Below, piece by piece: positions 2,530-43,291 of a stretch of DNA of 64,000 bases (position 1 is the first letter of the stretch; each line of letters opens with the position of its first letter). Below the pieces are notes generated by a model that saw nothing but the letters and a program-made list of their open reading frames with translations, was not told the origin of the DNA and did not search any database. This DNA is from an uncultured Flavobacteriaceae bacterium. GTDB lineage: Bacteria > Bacteroidota > Bacteroidia > Flavobacteriales > Flavobacteriaceae. A program made the translations under genes and the position numbers. Where the stretch lies: the NCBI GenBank assembly GCA_947501625.1, contig CANMWN010000001.1, positions 381,319 through 445,318 on the forward strand, read 5' to 3'.

Positions 2530-3623
2530 AATCTTAAAACTCCACCTTCTAAACTCAGCACATTTGTTTCAGGATACTTTTCTTTGAATAACAACGTTGC
2601 CATCATGCTAGTATTCCCACGATTGCAAACCATTATATATTTTTTAGAGATATCTTGAACCCCTTCTAACCATACATCAATATCATAAAAAGGTACATTT
2701 TCATCAATTTTAAATGGAACTTCTGGTTCATCGTCAAGTACTGAAACGATTTTTATTGCATCTCTATTTTCAGAAAGCAATTCTTTAAAGTCAGTTTGAG
2801 AAATGATTAATTCTTCAGGAGTTTCAGGTATTGTATTTTTATAACTCTCTTTTTCAAAATCCAGTGAAATCTTTTGTTTTGTAGCAATATTCTTTGGTTT
2901 TAATTTCATTCGATATTGAGAATTATCCAAACTATTGTAAATTAATAATTCGTTAATAATTGGTTTTCCAAGTTCAGTAATAATCTTAAGCACTTCATTA
3001 GCTTGCATTAAACCAATAATCCCAACAATAGAATTGAGCGTTCCTAATTCGGAACAATTTGGAATACTTGTAGTAGGAATTTCAGGAAAAGCATCTCGAA
3101 GATTGGCAGTCCTATCACCATTTTCATTTAAATAATTAAACGTTGCTACATAGCCATCAAACTTATATAATGAACCATAAACAAGGACCTTATCTTCTAA
3201 TACACATGTATCGTTCAACAAATATTTAGTAGGCAAATCATCAGTACAATCTAGGATAACATCAGCACTTGAAATTAATAATTTTACATTGTCTTTAGAA
3301 ACCATTTCGTTAGAAAAAGTTACTGTTACTAAAGGTGAAATAGATTGAATATAGTTTGATAAAACTTCAGCTTTAGATTTTCCAATATCCTCAGTTTTGT
3401 AAAATACTTGACGATGTAAATTACTAACATCAACGGTATCAAAATCAACTAAATGAATATTTCCAATTCCGCTTCCTGCAAGGTAAACTGCCGCAACTGA
3501 ACCTAATCCTCCGCAACCAACAATTGTCACACTTGCTTTTTGCAATCGTTGTTGACCTTTATCTCCCAGTTCTTTGAGTGTAGTTTGTCTTTTATATAAA
3601 TTTTTAGCAGAAATCATTTGCAT
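2526..3623 (-). CDS. moeB: Molybdopterin-synthase adenylyltransferase MoeB/MoeZ (ThiF domain + C-terminal rhodanese domain)
   Basis: 365 aa; ThiF/E1 nucleotide-binding fold (VTIVGCGGLGSVAAVYLAGSGIGNIHLVDFDTVDVSNLHRQ) and a C-terminal rhodanese-like segment with an active-site Cys (YIMVCNRGNTSM). Confidence 0.82.
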   Translation of the reverse strand: MQMISAKNLYKRQTTLKELGDKGQQRLQKASVTIVGCGGLGSVAAVYLAGSGIGNIHLVDFDTVDVSNLHRQVFYKTEDIGKSKAEVLSNYIQSISPLVTVTFSNEMVSKDNVKLLISSADVILDCTDDLPTKYLLNDTCVLEDKVLVYGSLYKFDGYVATFNYLNENGDRTANLRDAFPEIPTTSIPNCSELGTLNSIVGIIGLMQANEVLKIITELGKPIINELLIYNSLDNSQYRMKLKPKNIATKQKISLDFEKESYKNTIPETPEELIISQTDFKELLSENRDAIKIVSVLDDEPEVPFKIDENVPFYDIDVWLEGVQDISKKYIMVCNRGNTSMMATLLFKEKYPETNVLSLEGGVLRF

Positions 3624-3806
3624 TTACTCCAACATCATGTTTCTAATTGCCAAAACTAACATTACAAAACCAGCAATAAAAAAAACAAAACCAACAAGTG
3701 CTTGCCTTTTACTTTTCACTTGATCTTTTACAAATCGCATTGTAAAAGTGTTAAACAATACAAGTATTATTCCAACACTCATACATAAAAATCCTATTGA
3801 TAACAT
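3624..3806 (-). CDS. Small two-TM membrane protein, hypothetical
   Basis: 60 aa with two hydrophobic helices; tightly packed between moeB and the DinB-like gene (no gap), which suggests translational coupling. Confidence 0.35.
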   Translation of the reverse strand: MLSIGFLCMSVGIILVLFNTFTMRFVKDQVKSKRQALVGFVFFIAGFVMLVLAIRNMMLE

Positions 3807-3815
3807 ATTAATTTT

Positions 3816-4262
3816 TTAATTTAAAATTTGTTTAAGATGATGTTCCAAATGATTCACATAATCATTAATCCAAAATCTCATAGTCTCTGGTTCAGTATCC
3901 TTATAAATGATTATTTTATAATCTAAAACTTCATCCGTATAAGTTTCAATTACTTTTAAAATTCTTGTATTTAATGATATGAAAAAAGACATTAGTTCTT
4001 CTATGTCTGCATTTTGATAATCATTAGCATCAACCAATTCTTCTTGAGAATAGTGACATAATATATATGGCTTTTCGGCAAATTTAATTTCAGTAAATCT
4101 TTGTAAGTTATATACTCCTGAATCAATCAAATGCCCTAAAATCTCTTTTTTTGACCATTTTTTTTCTGATGGCTTATGGGAAATTTTTAACTTGTTTTCT
4201 GTGCTAAAAAAAGTTTCTAATGAGGTTAATAAACTTTTCATTTTAGTAATATCTTCTATCAT
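3816..4262 (-). CDS. DinB/YfiT-like (DinB_2 superfamily) putative metal-dependent protein
   Basis: 148 aa; H..D...Y...R...I and a C-terminal HLEHH histidine cluster typical of DinB_2 four-helix-bundle proteins. The family assignment is tentative. Confidence 0.4.
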   Translation of the reverse strand: MIEDITKMKSLLTSLETFFSTENKLKISHKPSEKKWSKKEILGHLIDSGVYNLQRFTEIKFAEKPYILCHYSQEELVDANDYQNADIEELMSFFISLNTRILKVIETYTDEVLDYKIIIYKDTEPETMRFWINDYVNHLEHHLKQILN

Positions 4263-5389
4263 AACAATTCCTTCTTAGCCTTTTCATAATCTTCAGGCGT
4301 ATTAATATTCTGTATATAATAATTTTCTACCTCAACAATTTCTACATCTGAATTTATTAGTACTTTTCTCGGACAAGAATAGCCTTGCGATAAATAATTC
4401 AACAAAATTGGATATGCTTTTGGTTCCCAAATAGTAATTAATGGTTCAGGAAATTCACTATCTTTTCCTTTGAATGCTGTTGCTATTTTCTTCGGGTTTC
4501 GATGTTTTAATAAATGATGAATCATTTTTCTATTTACATAAGGCAAATCCGTAGCAATTACAAACCAAGCAGTATTAGGATTTTCCATAAAAGCAGAACA
4601 AATACCACCAAAAGGACCTAAATCTTTAAATTTATCTGTTATAATATTTCGAGAAGCATTGATGTCTTCTCTTACCGACAAGTATACTCCTTTTTGTTCT
4701 TTATTGTAGTGTAAAAATATACGACTTAATTGCTCATATAAATATTCACTTTGAGGTTGTCCATGATATTCCAACATTGATTTATCAGTTCCCATTCGAG
4801 TACTTTTTCCTCCTGTCAAAATAAGTGCTTGTACTGGCGGAATTTCTTCTGCTATCAATCGATTGATATGAATAGAAATTGCTTCTACATCATCAATCAT
4901 ATAACATTTTAGGTTTTCAATAGTAGGAAATTTTTCAATCAAAAAGTCAAAATACTTGGAGTCTTCATTCATCTTAATGACAAACTGTATATTATTCAAT
5001 TGATCTAACCTTTTTAATACTGATGCTTCTTTTTCATTATCCAAAATCAATACCTGCTTTTCTGCTTGATAATGATTTCCGTTTACACACACTAAATCAT
5101 ATTGATTGAACTGAATTCTGGCATTAAATTTATTTAAAAGAGTTTGAGAATTTACATCTAAATTTCCTGAATGATGAAATGTAAATATATCTAATTCAGG
5201 CGCAACAATTTCATCATTATGACTTGCATCCAAATATGCAATTTTTGTTGTTTTTTGCTGTTTTTTAGCAATTTTTTGAACTAAATCGGTAATTATTGAG
5301 CATTTTACACCCAAAAATGCAATTTCGTTAGTTGCATATATTCCGTTGTTTCTACGTACTAATTTTGTATGTTTTTGGTGTTTACTCAT
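4259..5389 (-). CDS. mobA: Molybdenum cofactor guanylyltransferase MobA domain protein with a ~190-aa N-terminal extension (possible degenerate MobB-like domain)
   Basis: C-terminal half matches MobA (LILTGGKSTRMGTDKSMLEY.G.P...; DLGPFGGI; ATDLPY; NINTPEDY). The N-terminal half has no clear P-loop. Confidence 0.6.
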   Translation of the reverse strand: MSKHQKHTKLVRRNNGIYATNEIAFLGVKCSIITDLVQKIAKKQQKTTKIAYLDASHNDEIVAPELDIFTFHHSGNLDVNSQTLLNKFNARIQFNQYDLVCVNGNHYQAEKQVLILDNEKEASVLKRLDQLNNIQFVIKMNEDSKYFDFLIEKFPTIENLKCYMIDDVEAISIHINRLIAEEIPPVQALILTGGKSTRMGTDKSMLEYHGQPQSEYLYEQLSRIFLHYNKEQKGVYLSVREDINASRNIITDKFKDLGPFGGICSAFMENPNTAWFVIATDLPYVNRKMIHHLLKHRNPKKIATAFKGKDSEFPEPLITIWEPKAYPILLNYLSQGYSCPRKVLINSDVEIVEVENYYIQNINTPEDYEKAKKELL

Positions 5390-5859
5390 TAATTTTTAAT
5401 ATCAGATTTTCCTCCTGTTTTCTCAATCAACTTCACCTCTTTAATAACCATTTTTTGTGAAATAGATTTACACATATCATATACTGTTAGTGCAGCAACA
5501 TTTGCACCAGTTAAAGCTTCCATTTCTACACCAGTTTTCCCTTCAATTTCTACCGAACAATTAATTTCAATTTCCTCTTGATTGATGATTTCAATATCAA
5601 TATCAACTCCTTGAATTAGTAAGGGATGACACATTGGAATTAAGTCTGAAGTTTTTTTCACTGCTTGAATACCTGCAATAATAGCAGTTTGAAAAACTGG
5701 GCCTTTTTTTGTTAACAATTCATTATTTTCAAAATGAGAAATTACTTCACTTCCCAAAAACATAGTTGCTCTCGCCAACGCTTTCCTTTTGGTGATTTTC
5801 TTATCACCAACATTTACCATTTTAGGTTGATTCTTTTTATTTATATGTGAAAAATCCAT
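5389..5859 (-). CDS. moaC: Cyclic pyranopterin monophosphate synthase MoaC
   Basis: 156 aa; MoaC signatures (MVNVGDK..T.R.A.A; TGVEMEALTGANVAALTVYDMCK). Confidence 0.88.
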   Translation of the reverse strand: MDFSHINKKNQPKMVNVGDKKITKRKALARATMFLGSEVISHFENNELLTKKGPVFQTAIIAGIQAVKKTSDLIPMCHPLLIQGVDIDIEIINQEEIEINCSVEIEGKTGVEMEALTGANVAALTVYDMCKSISQKMVIKEVKLIEKTGGKSDIKN

Positions 5860-7515: not shown

Positions 7516-7788
7516 TTATAAATTTATATATCCAAAAAACGCAAAATAGATACTAAAAACAATTCCTGTTAAAGTAATCATCCATGAATATTGTTTAAGT
7601 CGTTTAATACTCCTCAAAATAAAGAATAAAACTAGAGTTATAATCATTATTAGAGGTTGAAAAATAAAAATTGCCAACCCACCTAAACCAACATTTTCAG
7701 GTTGATTTTTACTTGCAATGATTATACTAATAAAAGCCATAATAATCAAAACAGTAATGTTATAAATAATATTATTAATTTCTTTCAT
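7516..7788 (-). CDS. Small membrane protein, hypothetical (start trimmed to the internal Met to avoid overlapping moaA)
   Basis: The listed ORF 7516..7863 overlaps the moaA 3' end by 68 nt. An internal MKEINN start at about 7788 gives a 90-aa three-TM protein directly after the moaA stop. Confidence 0.35.
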   Translation of the reverse strand: MKEINNIIYNITVLIIMAFISIIIASKNQPENVGLGGLAIFIFQPLIMIITLVLFFILRSIKRLKQYSWMITLTGIVFSIYFAFFGYINL

Positions 7789-14451: not shown

Positions 14452-15766
14452 CTTTTTCAGTTGGGTTTATGGTCACTTTCACCTGTTTTAATCTGCGTTT
14501 ATCAACTGCTTCAACTTTAAACGCTAGATTATTAAACTTTATTACTTCTTTTACTTTCGGAAACTTTCCTGAGATTTCTAATATAAAACCAGCCAAAGTT
14601 TCGGTTTCACCTTTATCTTCTTCGAAGAGTTCTTCTTCAATATCTAAAACTTTAGAAAAGTCTTTGATAGATGTTTTTCCGTCAAATACGTAATTATGTT
14701 CATCAATCTTAGAATAAGACAAATCATCGTCATCAAATTCGTCAGAAATATCTCCAACAATTTCTTCGATGATATCTTCTAATGTTACTATGCCACTTGT
14801 TCCGCCATATTCATCGACAACAATAGCAAGGTGAATCTTTTTTTCCTGAAATTCTTTTAATAAATCATCTAATTTCTTGTTTTCAGGAACATAAAATGGC
14901 TCTCTCAACAACTTTTGCCATTTAAAATTCTTTTTATTCAAATGTGGCAATAAATCTTTGGCGTATAAAACACCAACAATTTCGTCAACCGATTCATGAT
15001 AAATAGGATTTCTAGAAAATCCGTTTTTAACAATCTGAGCAACAACATTTTCATAAGATTCATCATCGGCAATTGCAAACATATCAATTCGAGGTTTCAT
15101 AATCTGAACCGTCTCAGTGTTCCCAAAATTTACAATTCCCTCTAAAATTTTTTGTTCATCATCAGTTGTAGCATCATCGGAAGTTAATTCCAATGCTTGT
15201 GATAATTTTTCGACTGATAAGTTTGTTTGTTTTTGTCCCAATCGATTTTCAACAAAGTTGGTCAAGCTCATTAACGGAACACTAAAAGGTGTCAATACCT
15301 TATTCAAAAAGTTAATTGGCGTAACCATAAAAGTTGCTAATTTCATAGCATTTCGAGTTGCATATACTTTTGGCAAAACCTCACCAAACAACAAAATTAA
15401 AAAGGTTACTAAACCAACTTCAATAGCAAAACGCAAATACGTATTTTCAATACTACTAAATATTTCTTCGCCCAAAAAAGCAAATACCAACACAATTAAA
15501 ATATTGATAAAATTATTGGATATAAGTATGGTTGCTAATAGTTTTTTGGGATTTTCAAGCAATTTTACAACCGTCTGTTGTTTCTTAGATTTTGAATTGG
15601 CTGCTTCGTCTAAATCAGTTTGAGAAAGTGAGAAAAAAGCAACTTCAGTACCTGAAATAAATGCTGAACACACCAATAAAATGAACAAAACAATAAACCA
15701 TAACAAGATTATCTTGTTAAATAGTAGGAGTGAAAGAGAAAATAAACTCGAGGGTTCTGGATCCAA
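14441..15766 (-). CDS. gldE: Gliding motility protein GldE (DUF21 + tandem CBS + CorC/HlyC transporter-associated domain)
   Basis: 441 aa; N-terminal four-TM DUF21, CBS pair, C-terminal CorC_HlyC domain (GxxxTLAGFILE.....P). The family is also known as a hemolysin-C / CorC Mg/Co efflux family. Confidence 0.75.
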   Translation of the reverse strand: MDPEPSSLFSLSLLLFNKIILLWFIVLFILLVCSAFISGTEVAFFSLSQTDLDEAANSKSKKQQTVVKLLENPKKLLATILISNNFINILIVLVFAFLGEEIFSSIENTYLRFAIEVGLVTFLILLFGEVLPKVYATRNAMKLATFMVTPINFLNKVLTPFSVPLMSLTNFVENRLGQKQTNLSVEKLSQALELTSDDATTDDEQKILEGIVNFGNTETVQIMKPRIDMFAIADDESYENVVAQIVKNGFSRNPIYHESVDEIVGVLYAKDLLPHLNKKNFKWQKLLREPFYVPENKKLDDLLKEFQEKKIHLAIVVDEYGGTSGIVTLEDIIEEIVGDISDEFDDDDLSYSKIDEHNYVFDGKTSIKDFSKVLDIEEELFEEDKGETETLAGFILEISGKFPKVKEVIKFNNLAFKVEAVDKRRLKQVKVTINPTEKDEN

Positions 15767-15788
15767 TTAATAATTGATTTAATTAAAC

Positions 15789-16220
15789 TTAAAACGGTAA
15801 ATCATCATTTTCTTCAACAACATTTTGATTTTCCACATTTTTTGGCTGACTTACAGGTTGAGAAGGCGTATTTCCTAATTCTCTTTTGGTAGATAAAAAT
15901 GTCATATCAACTACATGAATTTCGGTTGAATAGCGCTTCACTCCATCTTCACCTTCCCACTGTCTGGTTTTTATTCTACCTTCACAATATACTTTATCAC
16001 CTTTGGTCAAATATTTTTCACAAATTTCAGCCAATTTATTTCTTACAACTACATTGTGCCATTCGGTAGTTGTAATTTTTTCACCTGTTTTTTTATTGGT
16101 GTATGATTCGTTAGTTGCCACAGGAAATCTACCAATAGAATTCTTATCGTCAAAATAATGCATTTTCACTTCATCTCCCAAATGTCCTATCAACATTACT
16201 TTATTTAAGGTTCCTGCCAT
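15789..16220 (-). CDS. ssb: Single-stranded DNA-binding protein
   Basis: 143 aa; OB-fold core (MAGTLNKVMLIGHLG.....; TEWH.VV....LAE....YL.KG..V..EG...TR.WE...G..R..TEI) and an acidic C-terminal tail ending DDLPF. Confidence 0.92.
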   Translation of the reverse strand: MAGTLNKVMLIGHLGDEVKMHYFDDKNSIGRFPVATNESYTNKKTGEKITTTEWHNVVVRNKLAEICEKYLTKGDKVYCEGRIKTRQWEGEDGVKRYSTEIHVVDMTFLSTKRELGNTPSQPVSQPKNVENQNVVEENDDLPF

Positions 16221-16497
16221 AACTATTTATTGTTTTAAATATCAAAAATACTAAAAATATCAATTGGTGAGAAAAAAGTAATTGTGATAATGTCATTTTG
16301 AGCACAGTCGAAAAATCTTTTTAAAGATTCTTCATTTCATTCAGAATAACAATTGACTTTGTAACTTATTCTCACTAACTTTACCTATCGGACGATAAAA
16401 TCAATTGAAACTGAATTTATCTTAAACCATTAGGCAAAATATAACCAAAACCATCTAAAAAAATAGAAATAATAAAGATACCAGAATATTGATTATG

Positions 16498-16515
16498 CAT
16501 TACGATATCGTAATG
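16498..16515. repeat. 18-bp perfect palindrome cattacgat|atcgtaatg in the 470-bp AT-rich non-coding region upstream of the RT gene
   Basis: Exact dyad symmetry; followed 3 nt later by a second hairpin aatcct-aaagtg-aggatt (16519-16536). It lies about 180 nt upstream of the RT start codon. Confidence 0.75.
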
Positions 16516-16692
16516 TCAATCCTAAAGTGAGGATTTAAATGAAGTTGACTCTTTTTAGATTAACTTTTAATTATTATATCTTTTAAGTTCAAATTATTTA
16601 TAATACTAATATATTTATAATATAATCTCGCTTTTAATTCTTATTAATTAAATTATGATTTATAACTTATTAAAGTTCATACACAAGAGAAT

Positions 16693-18387
16693 ATGCCTGG
16701 TATCTTTTTAGATGAAATTTCCCGAGAAAAAGTAGTTCAAAAATTTAATAATATTAGTTCCATTAATGAATTTGCTTCACTTCTAAATTTTATAGAGAGG
16801 AATAACACTCTTCTTCTAGATAAAAAGAAATTCACACCAATTAACTCAAAGTATTTATACCATTTATCAATAACTAAAGACAAAAGATATAAAGAGTTCA
16901 GTATCTCCAAAAAAAGTGGAAAAGAAAGAAAAATTGAATCACCAGATGAACTCTTGAAAAGGGTACAAAAACTAATTAATTTTTTATTGCAAGTTATTTT
17001 CGAACCATATTCACATTACAGTTCAAATGGCTTTTTGTTTGGAAAAGGAATCATAAGGAATGCAAAACCTCACATTAATAAAAAATATGTTTTAAATTTA
17101 GATATTAAAGATTTCTTTCCATCAATAAACTTTAGAAGAATAAAAGTGGTTTTAGAATTAAACCCATTCAACTTGAAGGATGAAAGAGAAAGAATATCTT
17201 TTCTAATAGCCAATATTTGCACTTATAAAAATCATCTTCCGCAAGGGGTTCCAACTTCTCCTATTTTATCCAATATTGTAACACAAAGATTAGATAGAAA
17301 ATTAACAAAAGAATGTTTAGGTTTAAATATTAAATACACTAGATATGCCGATGATTTAACATTTTCAAGTAATCAGAATATCCTTAACTCTAGTTTTATT
17401 AAAAAGGTTGAACAAATTGTTCAATCTGAAAACTTTGAACTTAACAACAATAAAACAAGACTGCAAACTTCTATGCAAAGGCAACAGGTTACAGGATTGG
17501 TAGTAAACGAAAAGTTAAATATTAAAAGAGAATATTTACAAAAAGTTAGAGCAATGCTCAACAACTGGGAAAAAGGAGGGTTGAATTACGCAGAACTTAT
17601 TTTTAGAAAGCATCAACCAATTGAAAAGAAAGGATATCCTTTTAAGAATGTCTTATTAGGTCATATTTCATTTATTAAACAAATAAAGGGCGCCGAAAAT
17701 AACATCTCCTTAAAACTAATAGAAAAATATACTTTATTAAATAACTTAATAGATTATAGTTTTATAAAAAATAAAGCCGTAAAAGAGAAGTTAATTAGTG
17801 ACAACCATAAAATGGAACAAATACCATTATTAAACAATCAAACTGAAAACGATAAATTTATATCCTTTTGCACTTCTGCTTTTCATCAAATAGAAAACTT
17901 GTTAAATTATTATTACTGGTCAAAATTCAAATTTATTGACTTACTTGAACACCTTTTATTAAATAACCCATCATTTAAGAAGAGGTATAAAAATCTTGAT
18001 AATGCAAAAAATAATTTTAAAAAAATAAGTGAACTGAATATAAATTTAATAGTTTATTTATATGAAAAAGAGTTCTTTTTTGACAAAAAAATATACTACA
18101 AACAAGAAATAACCAAATTAAGAGAAATAAGAAATGATGATTCACATAGATGTTCTGTCATTGATGTTAACAAAGACGAAATCAATAATGAATATGCTAA
18201 GTTAGAAGCAAAAAAAATTGATTTTAAAAAAAGAGGAAAAAATCTAGTATACAGTAACAAGGAGAAAAAGTTTATTTTAAAGTATGAATCTTTTCTTTTT
18301 TTAGAAAACAAGAATTATAAGGAAGTTAGACGCATTTTAAAAGATATTACACTAAATATTAAAAATACTTTGCCTAACAACGTATAA
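16693..18387 (+). CDS. Retron-type reverse transcriptase (Ec86-like RT core) with a ~250-aa C-terminal extension carrying a HEPN-like Rx4H motif
   Basis: 564 aa. The RT core aligns closely with Ec86 RT: domain 1 KKSGKERKIESP; retron-specific NAxxH (RNAKPH); domain 2 LNLDIKDFFPSI; domain 4 LPQGVPTSPILSNI; domain 5 YTRYADDLTFSS (Ec86: YTRYADDLTLSA); domain 7 QQVTGLVVN (retron VTG). About 290 aa follow the VTG motif (Ec86 has about 70), including ..LREIRNDDSHR.. = R-N-x3-H. GC content is lower than in the flanking genes. Confidence 0.85.
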   Translation: MPGIFLDEISREKVVQKFNNISSINEFASLLNFIERNNTLLLDKKKFTPINSKYLYHLSITKDKRYKEFSISKKSGKERKIESPDELLKRVQKLINFLLQVIFEPYSHYSSNGFLFGKGIIRNAKPHINKKYVLNLDIKDFFPSINFRRIKVVLELNPFNLKDERERISFLIANICTYKNHLPQGVPTSPILSNIVTQRLDRKLTKECLGLNIKYTRYADDLTFSSNQNILNSSFIKKVEQIVQSENFELNNNKTRLQTSMQRQQVTGLVVNEKLNIKREYLQKVRAMLNNWEKGGLNYAELIFRKHQPIEKKGYPFKNVLLGHISFIKQIKGAENNISLKLIEKYTLLNNLIDYSFIKNKAVKEKLISDNHKMEQIPLLNNQTENDKFISFCTSAFHQIENLLNYYYWSKFKFIDLLEHLLLNNPSFKKRYKNLDNAKNNFKKISELNINLIVYLYEKEFFFDKKIYYKQEITKLREIRNDDSHRCSVIDVNKDEINNEYAKLEAKKIDFKKRGKNLVYSNKEKKFILKYESFLFLENKNYKEVRRILKDITLNIKNTLPNNV

Positions 18388-18572
18388 AATTAATTGCTAG
18401 TTTTAGCCTACTTACGAAAATCCTTGCGAATTTTCTATTTGGTTTGTATTTGCTAAATTAGTTACTTAAACTACGCAACTAATCTTATACAAAACCGTTG
18501 AAGCACATTCAGCAAAGTTGAACTTTTGTTTCTTCGTGCTTCGCACTCCCATCCCAAAAGATTGTGCTTCAA

Positions 18573-18847
18573 CAGACCTGCTAAACCAAATTATTTAGTA
18601 TAGTGATATTTAAAATTAATATCACCTTTGCTGGGCATCGAGCCAAAACGATGCACCAACTTTTACTAAACATAATTTGGCTCTGCAATTTTTGCTCCCA
18701 ATAATCGAAATTTGGCAAATAACGCAAGACTCGCTTGCTATTCGATAAATTATTATCAGATTGATATAGGAAGTCTAATATCTGATAATAATTGCCCAAA
18801 TTCCTTATATTTACTCAAAAATTACAGAACTACGTTTAGCAGGTCTG
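18573..18847 (+). ncRNA. Candidate retron non-coding RNA (msr-msd) or small TIR-bounded element: 275 bp flanked by perfect 14-bp inverted repeats, multiple internal hairpins
   Basis: cagacctgctaaac (18573-18586) and gtttagcaggtctg (18834-18847) are exact reverse complements (a1/a2-like). The interior has hairpins gtgatatt/aatatcac, gcatcg/cgatgc, atcgaa[gcaag..cttgc]ttcgat, and a 14-bp perfect stem aattattatcagat/atctgataataatt (18748-18761 / 18780-18793) near the 3' end, as expected for an msd stem. It lies downstream of the RT and ends 28 nt before the mutY stop. Confidence 0.35.
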
Positions 18848-18875
18848 ATACATAAAATTATACTATACGCCATAA

Positions 18876-19919
18876 TTATGTGATTTTGATAAATTGTTCA
18901 ATAAAACTATCTATCAGTCTTGGTACTGGAAAATCATGAATATTTTTCCAATCAATAATTAAATCTTTTTTAGTTGTTTTCAAAATCCAAAAATGCGTGT
19001 ATAAATGTTGGTGAGATAGTTTATGTACAATTTCTTGCGAGTTATATAAACTCAATTCATACATTTCTTTTCCAACTATTTTTTTGAATTGCATATCTTT
19101 TGCCAACTCATTTTTATCAATAGTTTTGTCAGTTTCAATCAAAGGAAACTCATATAATCCTTGCCAAATTCCTTTCTGTGTTCTTTGATTTAAAATAGTC
19201 TTATCGTCAGGAGTAACAACAACCAAATAATTAAAGTATCGTTTCTTTATCTTAATTTTCTTCTCCTTGCAAGGCAATTCTTTGATTTTCTTTTTCTCAA
19301 GTGCAATACACTTATCATTCAGCGGACAAATATCACAGTCAGGATTTTGAGGTTTACACATTCTTGCACCAAACTCCATAATCGCTTGATTATGAGTCGC
19401 AGAATTTTTAACATCAATTAATTCTTGCGCCAATTCTTTAAAATACTTAATCCCTTTGGTTGAATTTATTGCCAAGTCAACACCATAAAAACGTGCTAAC
19501 ACTCTATATACATTACCATCAACTACTGCAGTTGGTTCATCAAAACAAATAGAAGCAATTGCCGAAGCTGTATAATCTCCTACTCCTTTTAACTTTAGTA
19601 TTTCTTTATAAGTAGCAGGAAAATTCCCGTTTAACTCCTTAACAATATAGTTGGCAGAGAAGTGTAAATTTCGTGCTCTAGAATAATAACCTAATCCTTG
19701 CCATAATTTTAGCACTTCTTGAATATCGGCATTAGCCAAATCAAAAACTGTTGGATATTTTTCTATAAAATTCAAATAATATGGCAGTCCTTGATCTACT
19801 CGAGTTTGCTGTAAAATAATTTCGGACATCCAAATAAAATATGGATTGGTCGTTTGCCTCCAAGGCAAATCTCTTTTATTGTCTAAGTACCAATTTATGA
19901 GAATGTTAGAAAAATTCAT
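18876..19919 (-). CDS. mutY: A/G-specific adenine DNA glycosylase MutY
   Basis: 347 aa; HhH-GPD glycosylase core with the 4Fe-4S cluster loop (C.....C..C.L...C) and a C-terminal NUDIX-like domain. Confidence 0.9.
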   Translation of the reverse strand: MNFSNILINWYLDNKRDLPWRQTTNPYFIWMSEIILQQTRVDQGLPYYLNFIEKYPTVFDLANADIQEVLKLWQGLGYYSRARNLHFSANYIVKELNGNFPATYKEILKLKGVGDYTASAIASICFDEPTAVVDGNVYRVLARFYGVDLAINSTKGIKYFKELAQELIDVKNSATHNQAIMEFGARMCKPQNPDCDICPLNDKCIALEKKKIKELPCKEKKIKIKKRYFNYLVVVTPDDKTILNQRTQKGIWQGLYEFPLIETDKTIDKNELAKDMQFKKIVGKEMYELSLYNSQEIVHKLSHQHLYTHFWILKTTKKDLIIDWKNIHDFPVPRLIDSFIEQFIKIT

Positions 19920-42611: not shown

Positions 42612-43291
42612 TTTAATTTATGAGTATTTATGTTTTTAACAAATAGATTTTTAGCAACTTCTTCAGTGATTAATATTTTTTGCTCGTTTAAAATTACTTC
42701 AAGGGATTTATCAAAAGATTCTCTATGAACAATCTTTATTTTATTTCCAATCGCTATTCCTTTATTGTTTAAATATTTTAAGAATACATCAGACGAATCT
42801 TTAACACCAACTATTGAACTTTCTTGATCAATTTCTAATTCAGACAATAATTTTTTAGTAAATATTGGGATATTTCCATTTTTATCAGGTATTGGATCTC
42901 CATGAGGATCTACTTCAGGAAATCCAAGAAATTTATCCAAATTATCTATTAAAGTTTCTGACTTCACATGTTCCAATTGCTCTGCTATCTCATGTACCTC
43001 ATCCCATCTGTATGAAAGATGTTTTACTAAAAAAACCTCCCATAAACGATGACTTCTAATAATGGATACTGCTGTTTTTTTACCTTGATCTGATAGTTTT
43101 ACGCCTTGATATTTTTTGTAATTGACTAATTTTTTATCAGCCAATTTTTTAACCATATCAGTTACTGATGATGCTTTTGTAACCAATTTGTTTGCTAAAT
43201 CATTGGTGCTAACATTGCTTTCAGACTTTTTTGAAAGGCTAAATATTGCCTTTAAATAGTTCTCTTCGGTATATGATAAATTACTTTTCAC
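42608..43291 (-). CDS. DtxR/MntR-family metal-dependent transcriptional regulator with a C-terminal FeoA-like domain
   Basis: 227 aa; N-terminal wHTH (YLKAIF.L), metal-binding dimerisation domain (HRLWE.FL...L), C-terminal SH3-like FeoA domain. First gene of the metal ABC operon. Confidence 0.78.
   Translation of the reverse strand: MKSNLSYTEENYLKAIFSLSKKSESNVSTNDLANKLVTKASSVTDMVKKLADKKLVNYKKYQGVKLSDQGKKTAVSIIRSHRLWEVFLVKHLSYRWDEVHEIAEQLEHVKSETLIDNLDKFLGFPEVDPHGDPIPDKNGNIPIFTKKLLSELEIDQESSIVGVKDSSDVFLKYLNNKGIAIGNKIKIVHRESFDKSLEVILNEQKILITEEVAKNLFVKNINTHKLK

Follow-up and report, generated by a model that had tools for sequence, protein, structure and literature searches.

A probable single-gene retron with a reverse transcriptase fused to a predicted HEPN domain, inserted in the 3' end of mutY in a Flavobacteriaceae genome

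Introduction

In the genome of an uncultured marine Flavobacteriaceae bacterium (GCA_947501625.1, contig CANMWN010000001.1), the minus-strand genes ssb and mutY are separated by 2,655 bp of DNA, within which a single long open reading frame (ORF) on the plus strand encodes a protein of 564 amino acids (aa). What kind of element is this, and how did it come to lie between two housekeeping genes? The window studied here is a stretch of 64,000 nucleotides (nt) of that contig, and all coordinates refer to it (Table 1). An initial annotation had read the segment as an AT-rich island carrying a retron-type reverse transcriptase (RT) with a fused effector, in an architecture that it could not place in a described type. 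Our analysis indicates that the element is probably a self-contained retron, consisting, within one transcript region, of a structured non-coding RNA (ncRNA) and then one protein in which an RT of the Eco2/Ec67 clade is fused to a C-terminal HEPN-type ribonuclease domain.

Results

A reverse transcriptase with retron sequence features

All five motifs quoted by the initial annotation were found at their places, RNAKPH at aa 122-127, DIKDFFPSI at 137-145, LPQGVPTSPILSN at 182-194, YTRYADDLTFS at 215-225 and VTGLVVN at 266-272, with Pfam placing RVT_1 at aa 71-269. The protein carries the NAxxH and VTG signature of retron RTs together with an intact YADD box, and the signature residues N123, A124, H127, Y218, D220, D221, T267 and G268 were invariant across 40 homologues. 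Retron models of PADLOC matched at 297-330 bits, the top ones being RT-Protease_XI (329 bits), RT-TIR_XII (316) and RT-Toprim_I-C (297), with E-values of 1e-98 to 1e-86. These matches were confined to the RT part, the XI models spanning aa 50-361 only, and the RT_IX model scored 178 bits versus 329 for XI. Types I-C, XI and XII make up RT clade 8, in which the RT is fused to a Toprim, TIR or protease domain (Mestre et al. 2020, PMC7736814).

NCBIfam models for retron TIR and Ec67 proteins scored 264-289 bits, Retron_TIR (NF042941) reaching 289 against a cutoff of 600 and covering the RT part only, while the group II intron model scored 80 bits against a cutoff of 300, and Drt2 and Drt3a 41-51 bits. 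The nearest sequences in the PDB were those of Ec67/Eco2 and Ec86 (E 2e-36), and the nearest folds were Eco2/Ec67, Ec86 and Eco7. Judged by its sequence, the RT is of retron type and probably belongs to the Eco2/Ec67 clade. It groups neither with group II intron nor with diversity-generating retroelement (DGR) RTs, nor with the UG/Abi (abortive infection) lineage; the profile comparison likewise bore out none of the alternatives that the initial annotation had named (group II intron, DGR or CRISPR-associated RTs).

A conserved and covarying ncRNA precedes the gene

The flanks of the ORF, estimated earlier at about 470 and 490 bp, measure 472 bp upstream and 488 bp downstream. Both had been called highly structured, which holds only for an ncRNA of ~234 nt in the upstream flank; the retron does not extend into the downstream flank. 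Every family locus, including those with protein identity as low as 53%, kept some 235-265 nt of the upstream DNA (16430-16692); the first 209 nt after ssb lie outside this block. The candidate msr-msd RNA shares the strand of the RT gene and has the pairing a2/a1 ends of a retron. Compensatory changes preserved this stem across loci (AAAGATACCAG with CTGGTATCTTT, AAAGACACCAG with CTGGTGTCTTT, GGGCACCTGAA with TTCAGGTGTCC, AACGCCCGAC with GTCGGGTGTT), and pairing was also kept in loci with the cores CCAG and CTGG, CCTG and CAGG, CTTG and CAAG, or CCCG and CGGG.

In an alignment of 24 loci, 87% of cells in the a2/a1 stem and second helix were paired and 9 of 16 pairs changed on both sides. The covariation score of these helices was reached by 0/500 shuffles, and slid-partner controls gave 33-49% pairing. 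RNAalifold, run on 13 full-length sequences, independently recovered both of these helices as well as the msr hairpin. Frequent G-U pairs, including the invariant G16497-U16516, show that the plus strand is the one that folds. The fold z-score of the ncRNA was -3.0. G16484, which ends a2, occurred in 24/24 sequences; in the model its partner is an a1 C.

Two other pairings were set aside: the downstream inverted repeat (18573-18597 with 18823-18847) as a1/a2, because no family locus conserves this DNA, and an ATTGA-TCAAT helix around the msr hairpin, to which variation, compared by eye, gave no support. The 12-mer TCATACACAAGA at the ncRNA 3' end (16677-16688), just before a1, was also seen at the 3' end of repeat copies that precede the ncRNA in loci L001, L004 and L009, ~270 nt before the RT start. 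In another locus (L015), the msr core hairpin (TGCATTGTGTTTTCGCAATGT, 353-373) precedes, by ~200 nt, an RT of 384 aa (546-1700) that has no HEPN-like domain, and the ncRNA family therefore reaches beyond the fusion proteins.

The C-terminal region is predicted to be a HEPN domain

The additional C-terminal region, which had been proposed to be a fused effector, is a conserved domain of ~205-225 aa; its predicted fold is HEPN-like, and it carries RNxxxH as an invariant motif. Full-length homologues of the fusion protein number more than 100, nearly all in Flavobacteriia and other Bacteroidota. Residues D370, M374, E375, C393, F397, Q399, E401, N402 and E458 were invariant among homologues, as were R477, R480, N481, H485, R486 and R546. 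For aa 337-564, AlphaFold with a 61-sequence alignment gave a confident, all-alpha model (pLDDT, the predicted local distance difference test, 91.6), with the four-helix up-and-down core and Rx4-6H motif that define the HEPN superfamily; R480-N-D-D-S-H485 is a canonical Rx4H motif. The top structural template of the domain was 2hsb. The Toprim motifs EGxxD and DxD were not present in the homologue alignment.

Taken alone, the C-terminal 204 aa (~361-564) matched nothing in Pfam or PADLOC. In the HEPN check suggested by the initial annotation, fold and motif agreed with HEPN, and no Pfam match appeared. We consider it probable that this is a HEPN domain.

Split forms and related fusions

Nine loci in which the two parts are separate genes (L085-L092, L094) were found by a domain-alignment search of metagenome and viral contigs. 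Each has a related, clade-8-like retron RT of 418-542 aa, for which the top PADLOC models were again XI, XII and I-C. A second gene, whose product of 235-281 aa is a homologue of the C-terminal domain, follows and overlaps or abuts the 3' end of the RT gene (9/9 loci). In L085, for example, the RT lies at 3348-4817 and the HEPN-like homologue at 4821-5528. The D, M, Q, E and R-N-x3-H-R residues were invariant across fused and split forms, and the split-form loci had long-range inverted repeats of 12-16 nt at equivalent upstream positions. The second protein is not covered by any PADLOC model. Since the domain is encoded either as a neighbour of the RT or as a fusion to it, it is best seen as a functional partner of the RT, here an effector.

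A phmmer search of 1.84 billion representatives returned 180 clusters (50% identity) at E <= 1e-3, mostly stand-alone proteins of 220-315 aa, with a few fused ones of ~550 aa. Among viral contigs only one distant split-type relative (L094) was found, and the ncRNA core motif was not found there. The nearest other RT relatives from Bacteroidota are fused to a HisKin-conflict domain (PF22561; L014 5965-8502, L027 5989-8079, L062 5995-8100), and one to a Mrr_cat nuclease domain (L028 5965-7563), in keeping with the modular exchange of effectors for which this RT clade is known.

The element lies inside the 3' end of mutY

In the three closest relatives with usable contigs, mutY and ssb are 7-12 bp apart, and the DNA between them in the window is therefore an insertion. 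The relatives share the order RNase G-HU-mutY-ssb-gldE-gldD-COX15 (orthologue identities 77-95%; MutY 74-76% identical to that of the window). This synteny agrees with what had been anticipated for genomes lacking the island. The placement between ssb and mutY is right for the present annotation; strictly, the insertion is composite and sits within mutY. The relatives' DNA aligns to window positions 18993-18892 and then again to 16259-16150 (85-87% identity over 16259-16150), which places the insertion point inside the mutY 3' end, ~11 codons ahead of the ancestral stop. The last nine ancestral codons (DIFSIFDI-stop) are stranded beside ssb at ~16235-16261, and the present MutY has a new C-terminus, IKIT-stop (18876-18890, minus strand), supplied by the right-hand filler DNA. 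Within the mutY remnant, ~22 nt upstream of the ssb ATG, there is a Bacteroidota -7 box (TATTTTTG), which the relatives also have.

The size given earlier was correct, and GC content was low for the island (26.0% versus 30.6% for the window) and the upstream flank (21.8%); the downstream flank, at 32.6%, is therefore not AT-rich. An AATTG direct repeat (5-8 bp) at the insertion junctions was not taken to be a target-site duplication because excision would not restore the mutY frame.

Neither stretch of inserted filler DNA, 16262-16429 or 18498-18891, had a match among the compared loci. The left one includes, at 16285-16340, GTCATTTTGAGCACAGTCGAAAAATC followed by a hairpin (AAATCTTTTTAAAGATT). 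Strings like GTCATTCTGAG...GTCGAAG were found upstream of the L006 retron, and strings of these two types may be a dispersed Bacteroidota intergenic repeat. On the right, an 11-bp inverted repeat (GTTGAAGCACA at 18497-18507 with TGTGCTTCAAC at 18563-18573) is followed by one of 14-25 bp (CAGACCTGCTAAAC... at 18573-18597 with ...GTTTAGCAGGTCTG at 18823-18847) that resembles a miniature inverted-repeat transposable element of ~275 bp; apart from a weak match at window 42848-42896, these repeats (18497-18847) had no counterpart in any compared locus. One relative (L104 2979-3953) has an insertion sequence (IS)-type gene (HTH_38 and rve) between HU and mutY, so the mutY neighbourhood has been struck by mobile DNA independently.

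An autonomous unit beside a shared repeat

The absence of a separate effector gene, asserted by the initial annotation, was upheld. Among the neighbours of 14 family loci no ORF family was common, except in two syntenic Flavobacterium genomes, and the neighbours of seven further family loci were unrelated. The RT-HEPN unit therefore appears to be self-contained. On plasmids only RT domain matches were found, the full protein being on none, and phage genomes gave no match to the C-terminal domain. Fic and Transposase_mut genes stand beside one family member (L100 1-438 and 4881-6089); the majority of the others are surrounded by housekeeping genes.

A Polaribacter metagenome-assembled genome (MAG; L001) has, between different flanks, a copy with 98% identity over 2.1 kb, identity falling sharply after ~18497. 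On the left, nucleotide homology with six loci in unrelated contexts sets in abruptly, at exactly 16430 with L081, L003, L004 and L005, at 16426 with L001 and at 16433 with L006. Directly after the RT-HEPN stop codon lies a member of a ~110-nt repeat family, defined by a hairpin GAAAATCC..GGATTTTC, an invariant ACGCAAC and the 3' end ...ACCG/TTAG(G)C (the slash marks the boundary). With nhmmer, copies were found after the RT in L001 (2013-2134), L006 (7763-7880), L003 (7707-7826) and L081 (3742-3844). L009 has four (2543-2662, 4029-4151, 5678-5763 and 7715-7774), two of them away from the RT, and in several loci the repeat 3' end lies directly upstream of the ncRNA. Because the repeat also flanks other single genes, the unit 16430-18497 resembles a cassette whose boundaries fall at G/TT. 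By these sequence comparisons the repeat is not specific to the retron, and the downstream flank lies outside it.

Integron gene cassettes carry an attC site, an imperfect R''-L''...L'-R' hairpin with a GTTRRRY core and its crossover at G/TT. The cassette junctions (...ACCG/TTAGGC) resemble an integron cassette boundary, and the repeat is common to several loci. It showed no attC-like single-hairpin fold, and no IntI integrase was found in the family-locus DNA examined; one L009 copy abuts an IS1182-like transposase.

Table 1. Coordinates of the retron and its surroundings in the window
Feature	Position	Strand	Remarks
ssb	15789-16220	-	window gene
Ancestral mutY 3' end (DIFSIFDI-stop) and ssb upstream region	16221-16261	-	translation matches relatives' MutY C-termini
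Left filler of insertion	16262-16429		hairpin and GTCATTTTGAGCACAGTCGAAAAATC-type repeat
Conserved 5' leader	16430-16473	+	sharp left homology boundary A/TTAGGCAAAATAT
Candidate retron ncRNA (msr-msd)	16474-16707	+	~234 nt; conservation and covariation
a2 AAAGATACCAG	16474-16484	+	11 nt, pairs with a1
Second helix, 5 bp	16486-16490 with 16690-16694	+	covariation, RNAalifold
msr hairpin	16497-16516	+	RNAalifold
Small hairpin	16518-16535	+	
AT-rich central stretch, putative msd template	16541-16676	+	
Conserved TCATACACAAGAGAAT	16677-16692	+	
a1 CTGGTATCTTT	16697-16707	+	overlaps RT codons 2-5
RT-HEPN fusion gene	16693-18387	+	564 aa
Retron RT domain	16840-17712 (aa ~50-340)	+	NAxxH 17056-17073; YADD box 17335-17367; VTG 17488-17508
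HEPN-like domain	17773-18384 (aa ~361-564)	+	REIRNDDSHRC motif at 18121-18153 (R480, N481, H485, R486)
~110-nt repeat element	18389-18500	+	directly after RT-HEPN stop; hairpin GAAAATCC..GAATTTTC, ACGCAAC, 3' end ACAAAACCG/TT
Right filler of insertion	18498-18891		two inverted repeats and new MutY tail
mutY	18876-19919	-	window gene

Discussion

The locus holds an intact retron-type RT, a conserved ncRNA with covarying helices and a domain with a HEPN-like fold and invariant catalytic-type residues; the single gene is autonomous, and a split form of it exists. Several results limit the HEPN assignment or weigh against reading these parts as a retron with a HEPN effector. Foldseek found nothing significant in the PDB for the C-terminal model, a profile of the fused and split domains matched no PDB sequence, and Pfam HEPN_Swt1 was touched by two stand-alone homologues only, weakly (E ~0.03). 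The central ~135 nt of the ncRNA (14% GC) fold no better than shuffles, with z-scores near 0; a long msd hairpin there is accordingly not supported, and no msd stem of the kind seen in model retrons is evident. An Rfam search of window 15500-19500, with E up to 10, gave chance matches only, and no promoter was identified upstream of a2. Defence-island context was inconsistent across the family, L097 (1-2706) alone lying beside Mrr and an AAA_15/AAA_21 ATPase.

In one rival reading the element is a retron whose C-terminal domain serves not as a nuclease effector but as a module for structure, oligomerisation or nucleic-acid binding; a toxic effector would then be encoded elsewhere, or the element would have another role, such as cassette addiction or regulation. 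We consider this unlikely. A decaying, non-functional mobile-element remnant that landed by chance in the mutY 3' end might be suspected from the composite island with its unexplained filler DNA and from interrupted frames in two family loci (L005 6001-7689, a 421-aa ORF; L006 6001-7685, ORFs of 204 and 304 aa), these interruptions being either decaying copies or MAG assembly errors. Against this, the ORF of the window is full-length with all catalytic motifs present, a 98-99% identical copy exists elsewhere, and both domains and the ncRNA are kept in >100 full-length homologues, which makes a remnant very improbable. The slimmest chance goes to an AbiA-like RT of the Abi/UG class (the class of the defence-associated RTs, DRT) fused to HEPN, synthesizing DNA without a dedicated msr-msd template and so not a retron.

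We return to the self-contained retron with a fused HEPN domain, which is likely to be an anti-phage system by analogy with Eco2 (PMC12916289) and type IX (bioRxiv 10.64898/2026.07.14.737667). From the same two systems we infer synthesis of multicopy single-stranded DNA (msDNA), ribonuclease activity and its target, the trigger and a defence phenotype. The RT would bind the msr hairpins and prime from a guanosine near the a2/a1 stem, for which the invariant G16484 is the candidate, and would copy the AT-rich msd template of the ncRNA (16474-16707) into msDNA. The msDNA-RT complex may then keep the fused HEPN domains inactive. On phage infection, the msDNA would be cut, modified or sequestered and the HEPN domains activated, probably as dimers with a composite Rx4H site. 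Active HEPN would cleave host RNA, most likely tRNA, leading to a stop in translation and to abortive infection.

More tentatively, and with somewhat less than even confidence, we suggest an unclassified retron type whose fused form occurs mainly in Flavobacteriia/Bacteroidota, with a more diverse split form in which the RT is followed by a HEPN-like gene of ~250 aa. The fused form would move as a promoter-proximal cassette of ~2.07 kb (16430-18497), bounded at G/TT beside the ~110-nt repeat, through an integron-like or other trans-mobilised system in Flavobacteriaceae.

The RT-HEPN retron is a subtype outside the current retron classification. The initial annotation could not place the architecture in a described type, and it has no counterpart among the 13 types of Mestre et al. 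2020 (PMC7736814); neither that scheme nor PADLOC 2.0 has a model for the C-terminal domain. An effector family invisible to Pfam and PADLOC means that such systems are missed by the tested models. Searches of the accessible literature returned no description of a retron RT-HEPN fusion, of a 'type XIV' or of Flavobacterium retrons of this kind. The finding is of moderate specialist interest: it would be the fourth effector fusion, or a later one, among the single-polypeptide retrons of the Eco2-like clade, and a minimal retron of ~2 kb from Bacteroidota, a phylum with few retron studies. The occurrence of one RT-effector pair in both fused and split versions provides a natural experiment in effector recruitment by retrons, and so compact an element could be of interest for engineering Bacteroidota genomes with retrons.

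Retrons with fused effectors are on record already, as are HEPN effectors of retrons and, in AbiA, RT-HEPN fusions. AbiA of Lactococcus is an RT-HEPN fusion of the Abi/UG class, to which the RT of the window does not belong. Among retrons, Eco2 (Ec67), of type I-C1, is an RT-Toprim fusion (PMC12916289; PMC7736814) in which the msDNA cages the fused nuclease until an msDNA-degrading phage nuclease unleashes tRNA cleavage (PMC12916289). The window protein differs in its all-alpha, HEPN-like C-terminal domain, which together with the lack of a PADLOC or Pfam match places it outside type I-C, and also in an ncRNA without an Rfam match and a host in Bacteroidota. Types XI (RT-protease) and XII (RT-TIR) of clade 8 (PMC7736814) are likewise single-gene fusions and gave the highest RT scores; Pfam and PADLOC found no trypsin-like protease or TIR domain in the window protein, which is thus a member of neither.

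In the 13-type scheme HEPN occurs as a separate protein of type IX (PMC7736814). Type IX retrons (Kva2, Sen3, Yin1) combine an RT, a HEPN protein and a winged-helix protein (bioRxiv 10.64898/2026.07.14.737667; PMC7736814); their msDNA restrains HEPN until a phage nuclease frees it and tRNA is cut (bioRxiv 10.64898/2026.07.14.737667). The likeness lies in the HEPN ribonuclease effector, predicted in our case, and in the template 2hsb, the one reported for the type IX HEPN (PMC7736814). Type IX has a separate upstream HEPN gene, a winged-helix gene and a clade 7 RT, whereas the HEPN-like domain of the window is fused and no flanking gene accompanies it. The type IX HEPN also lacks the canonical H of Rx4-6H (Mestre et al., PMC7736814), whereas RNxxxH is invariant in the window family, which accordingly stands apart from type IX. 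The RT-HEPN retron would in this way bridge two recently solved mechanisms, the caging of a nuclease fused to the RT in Eco2 and the msDNA-restrained HEPN tRNase of type IX.

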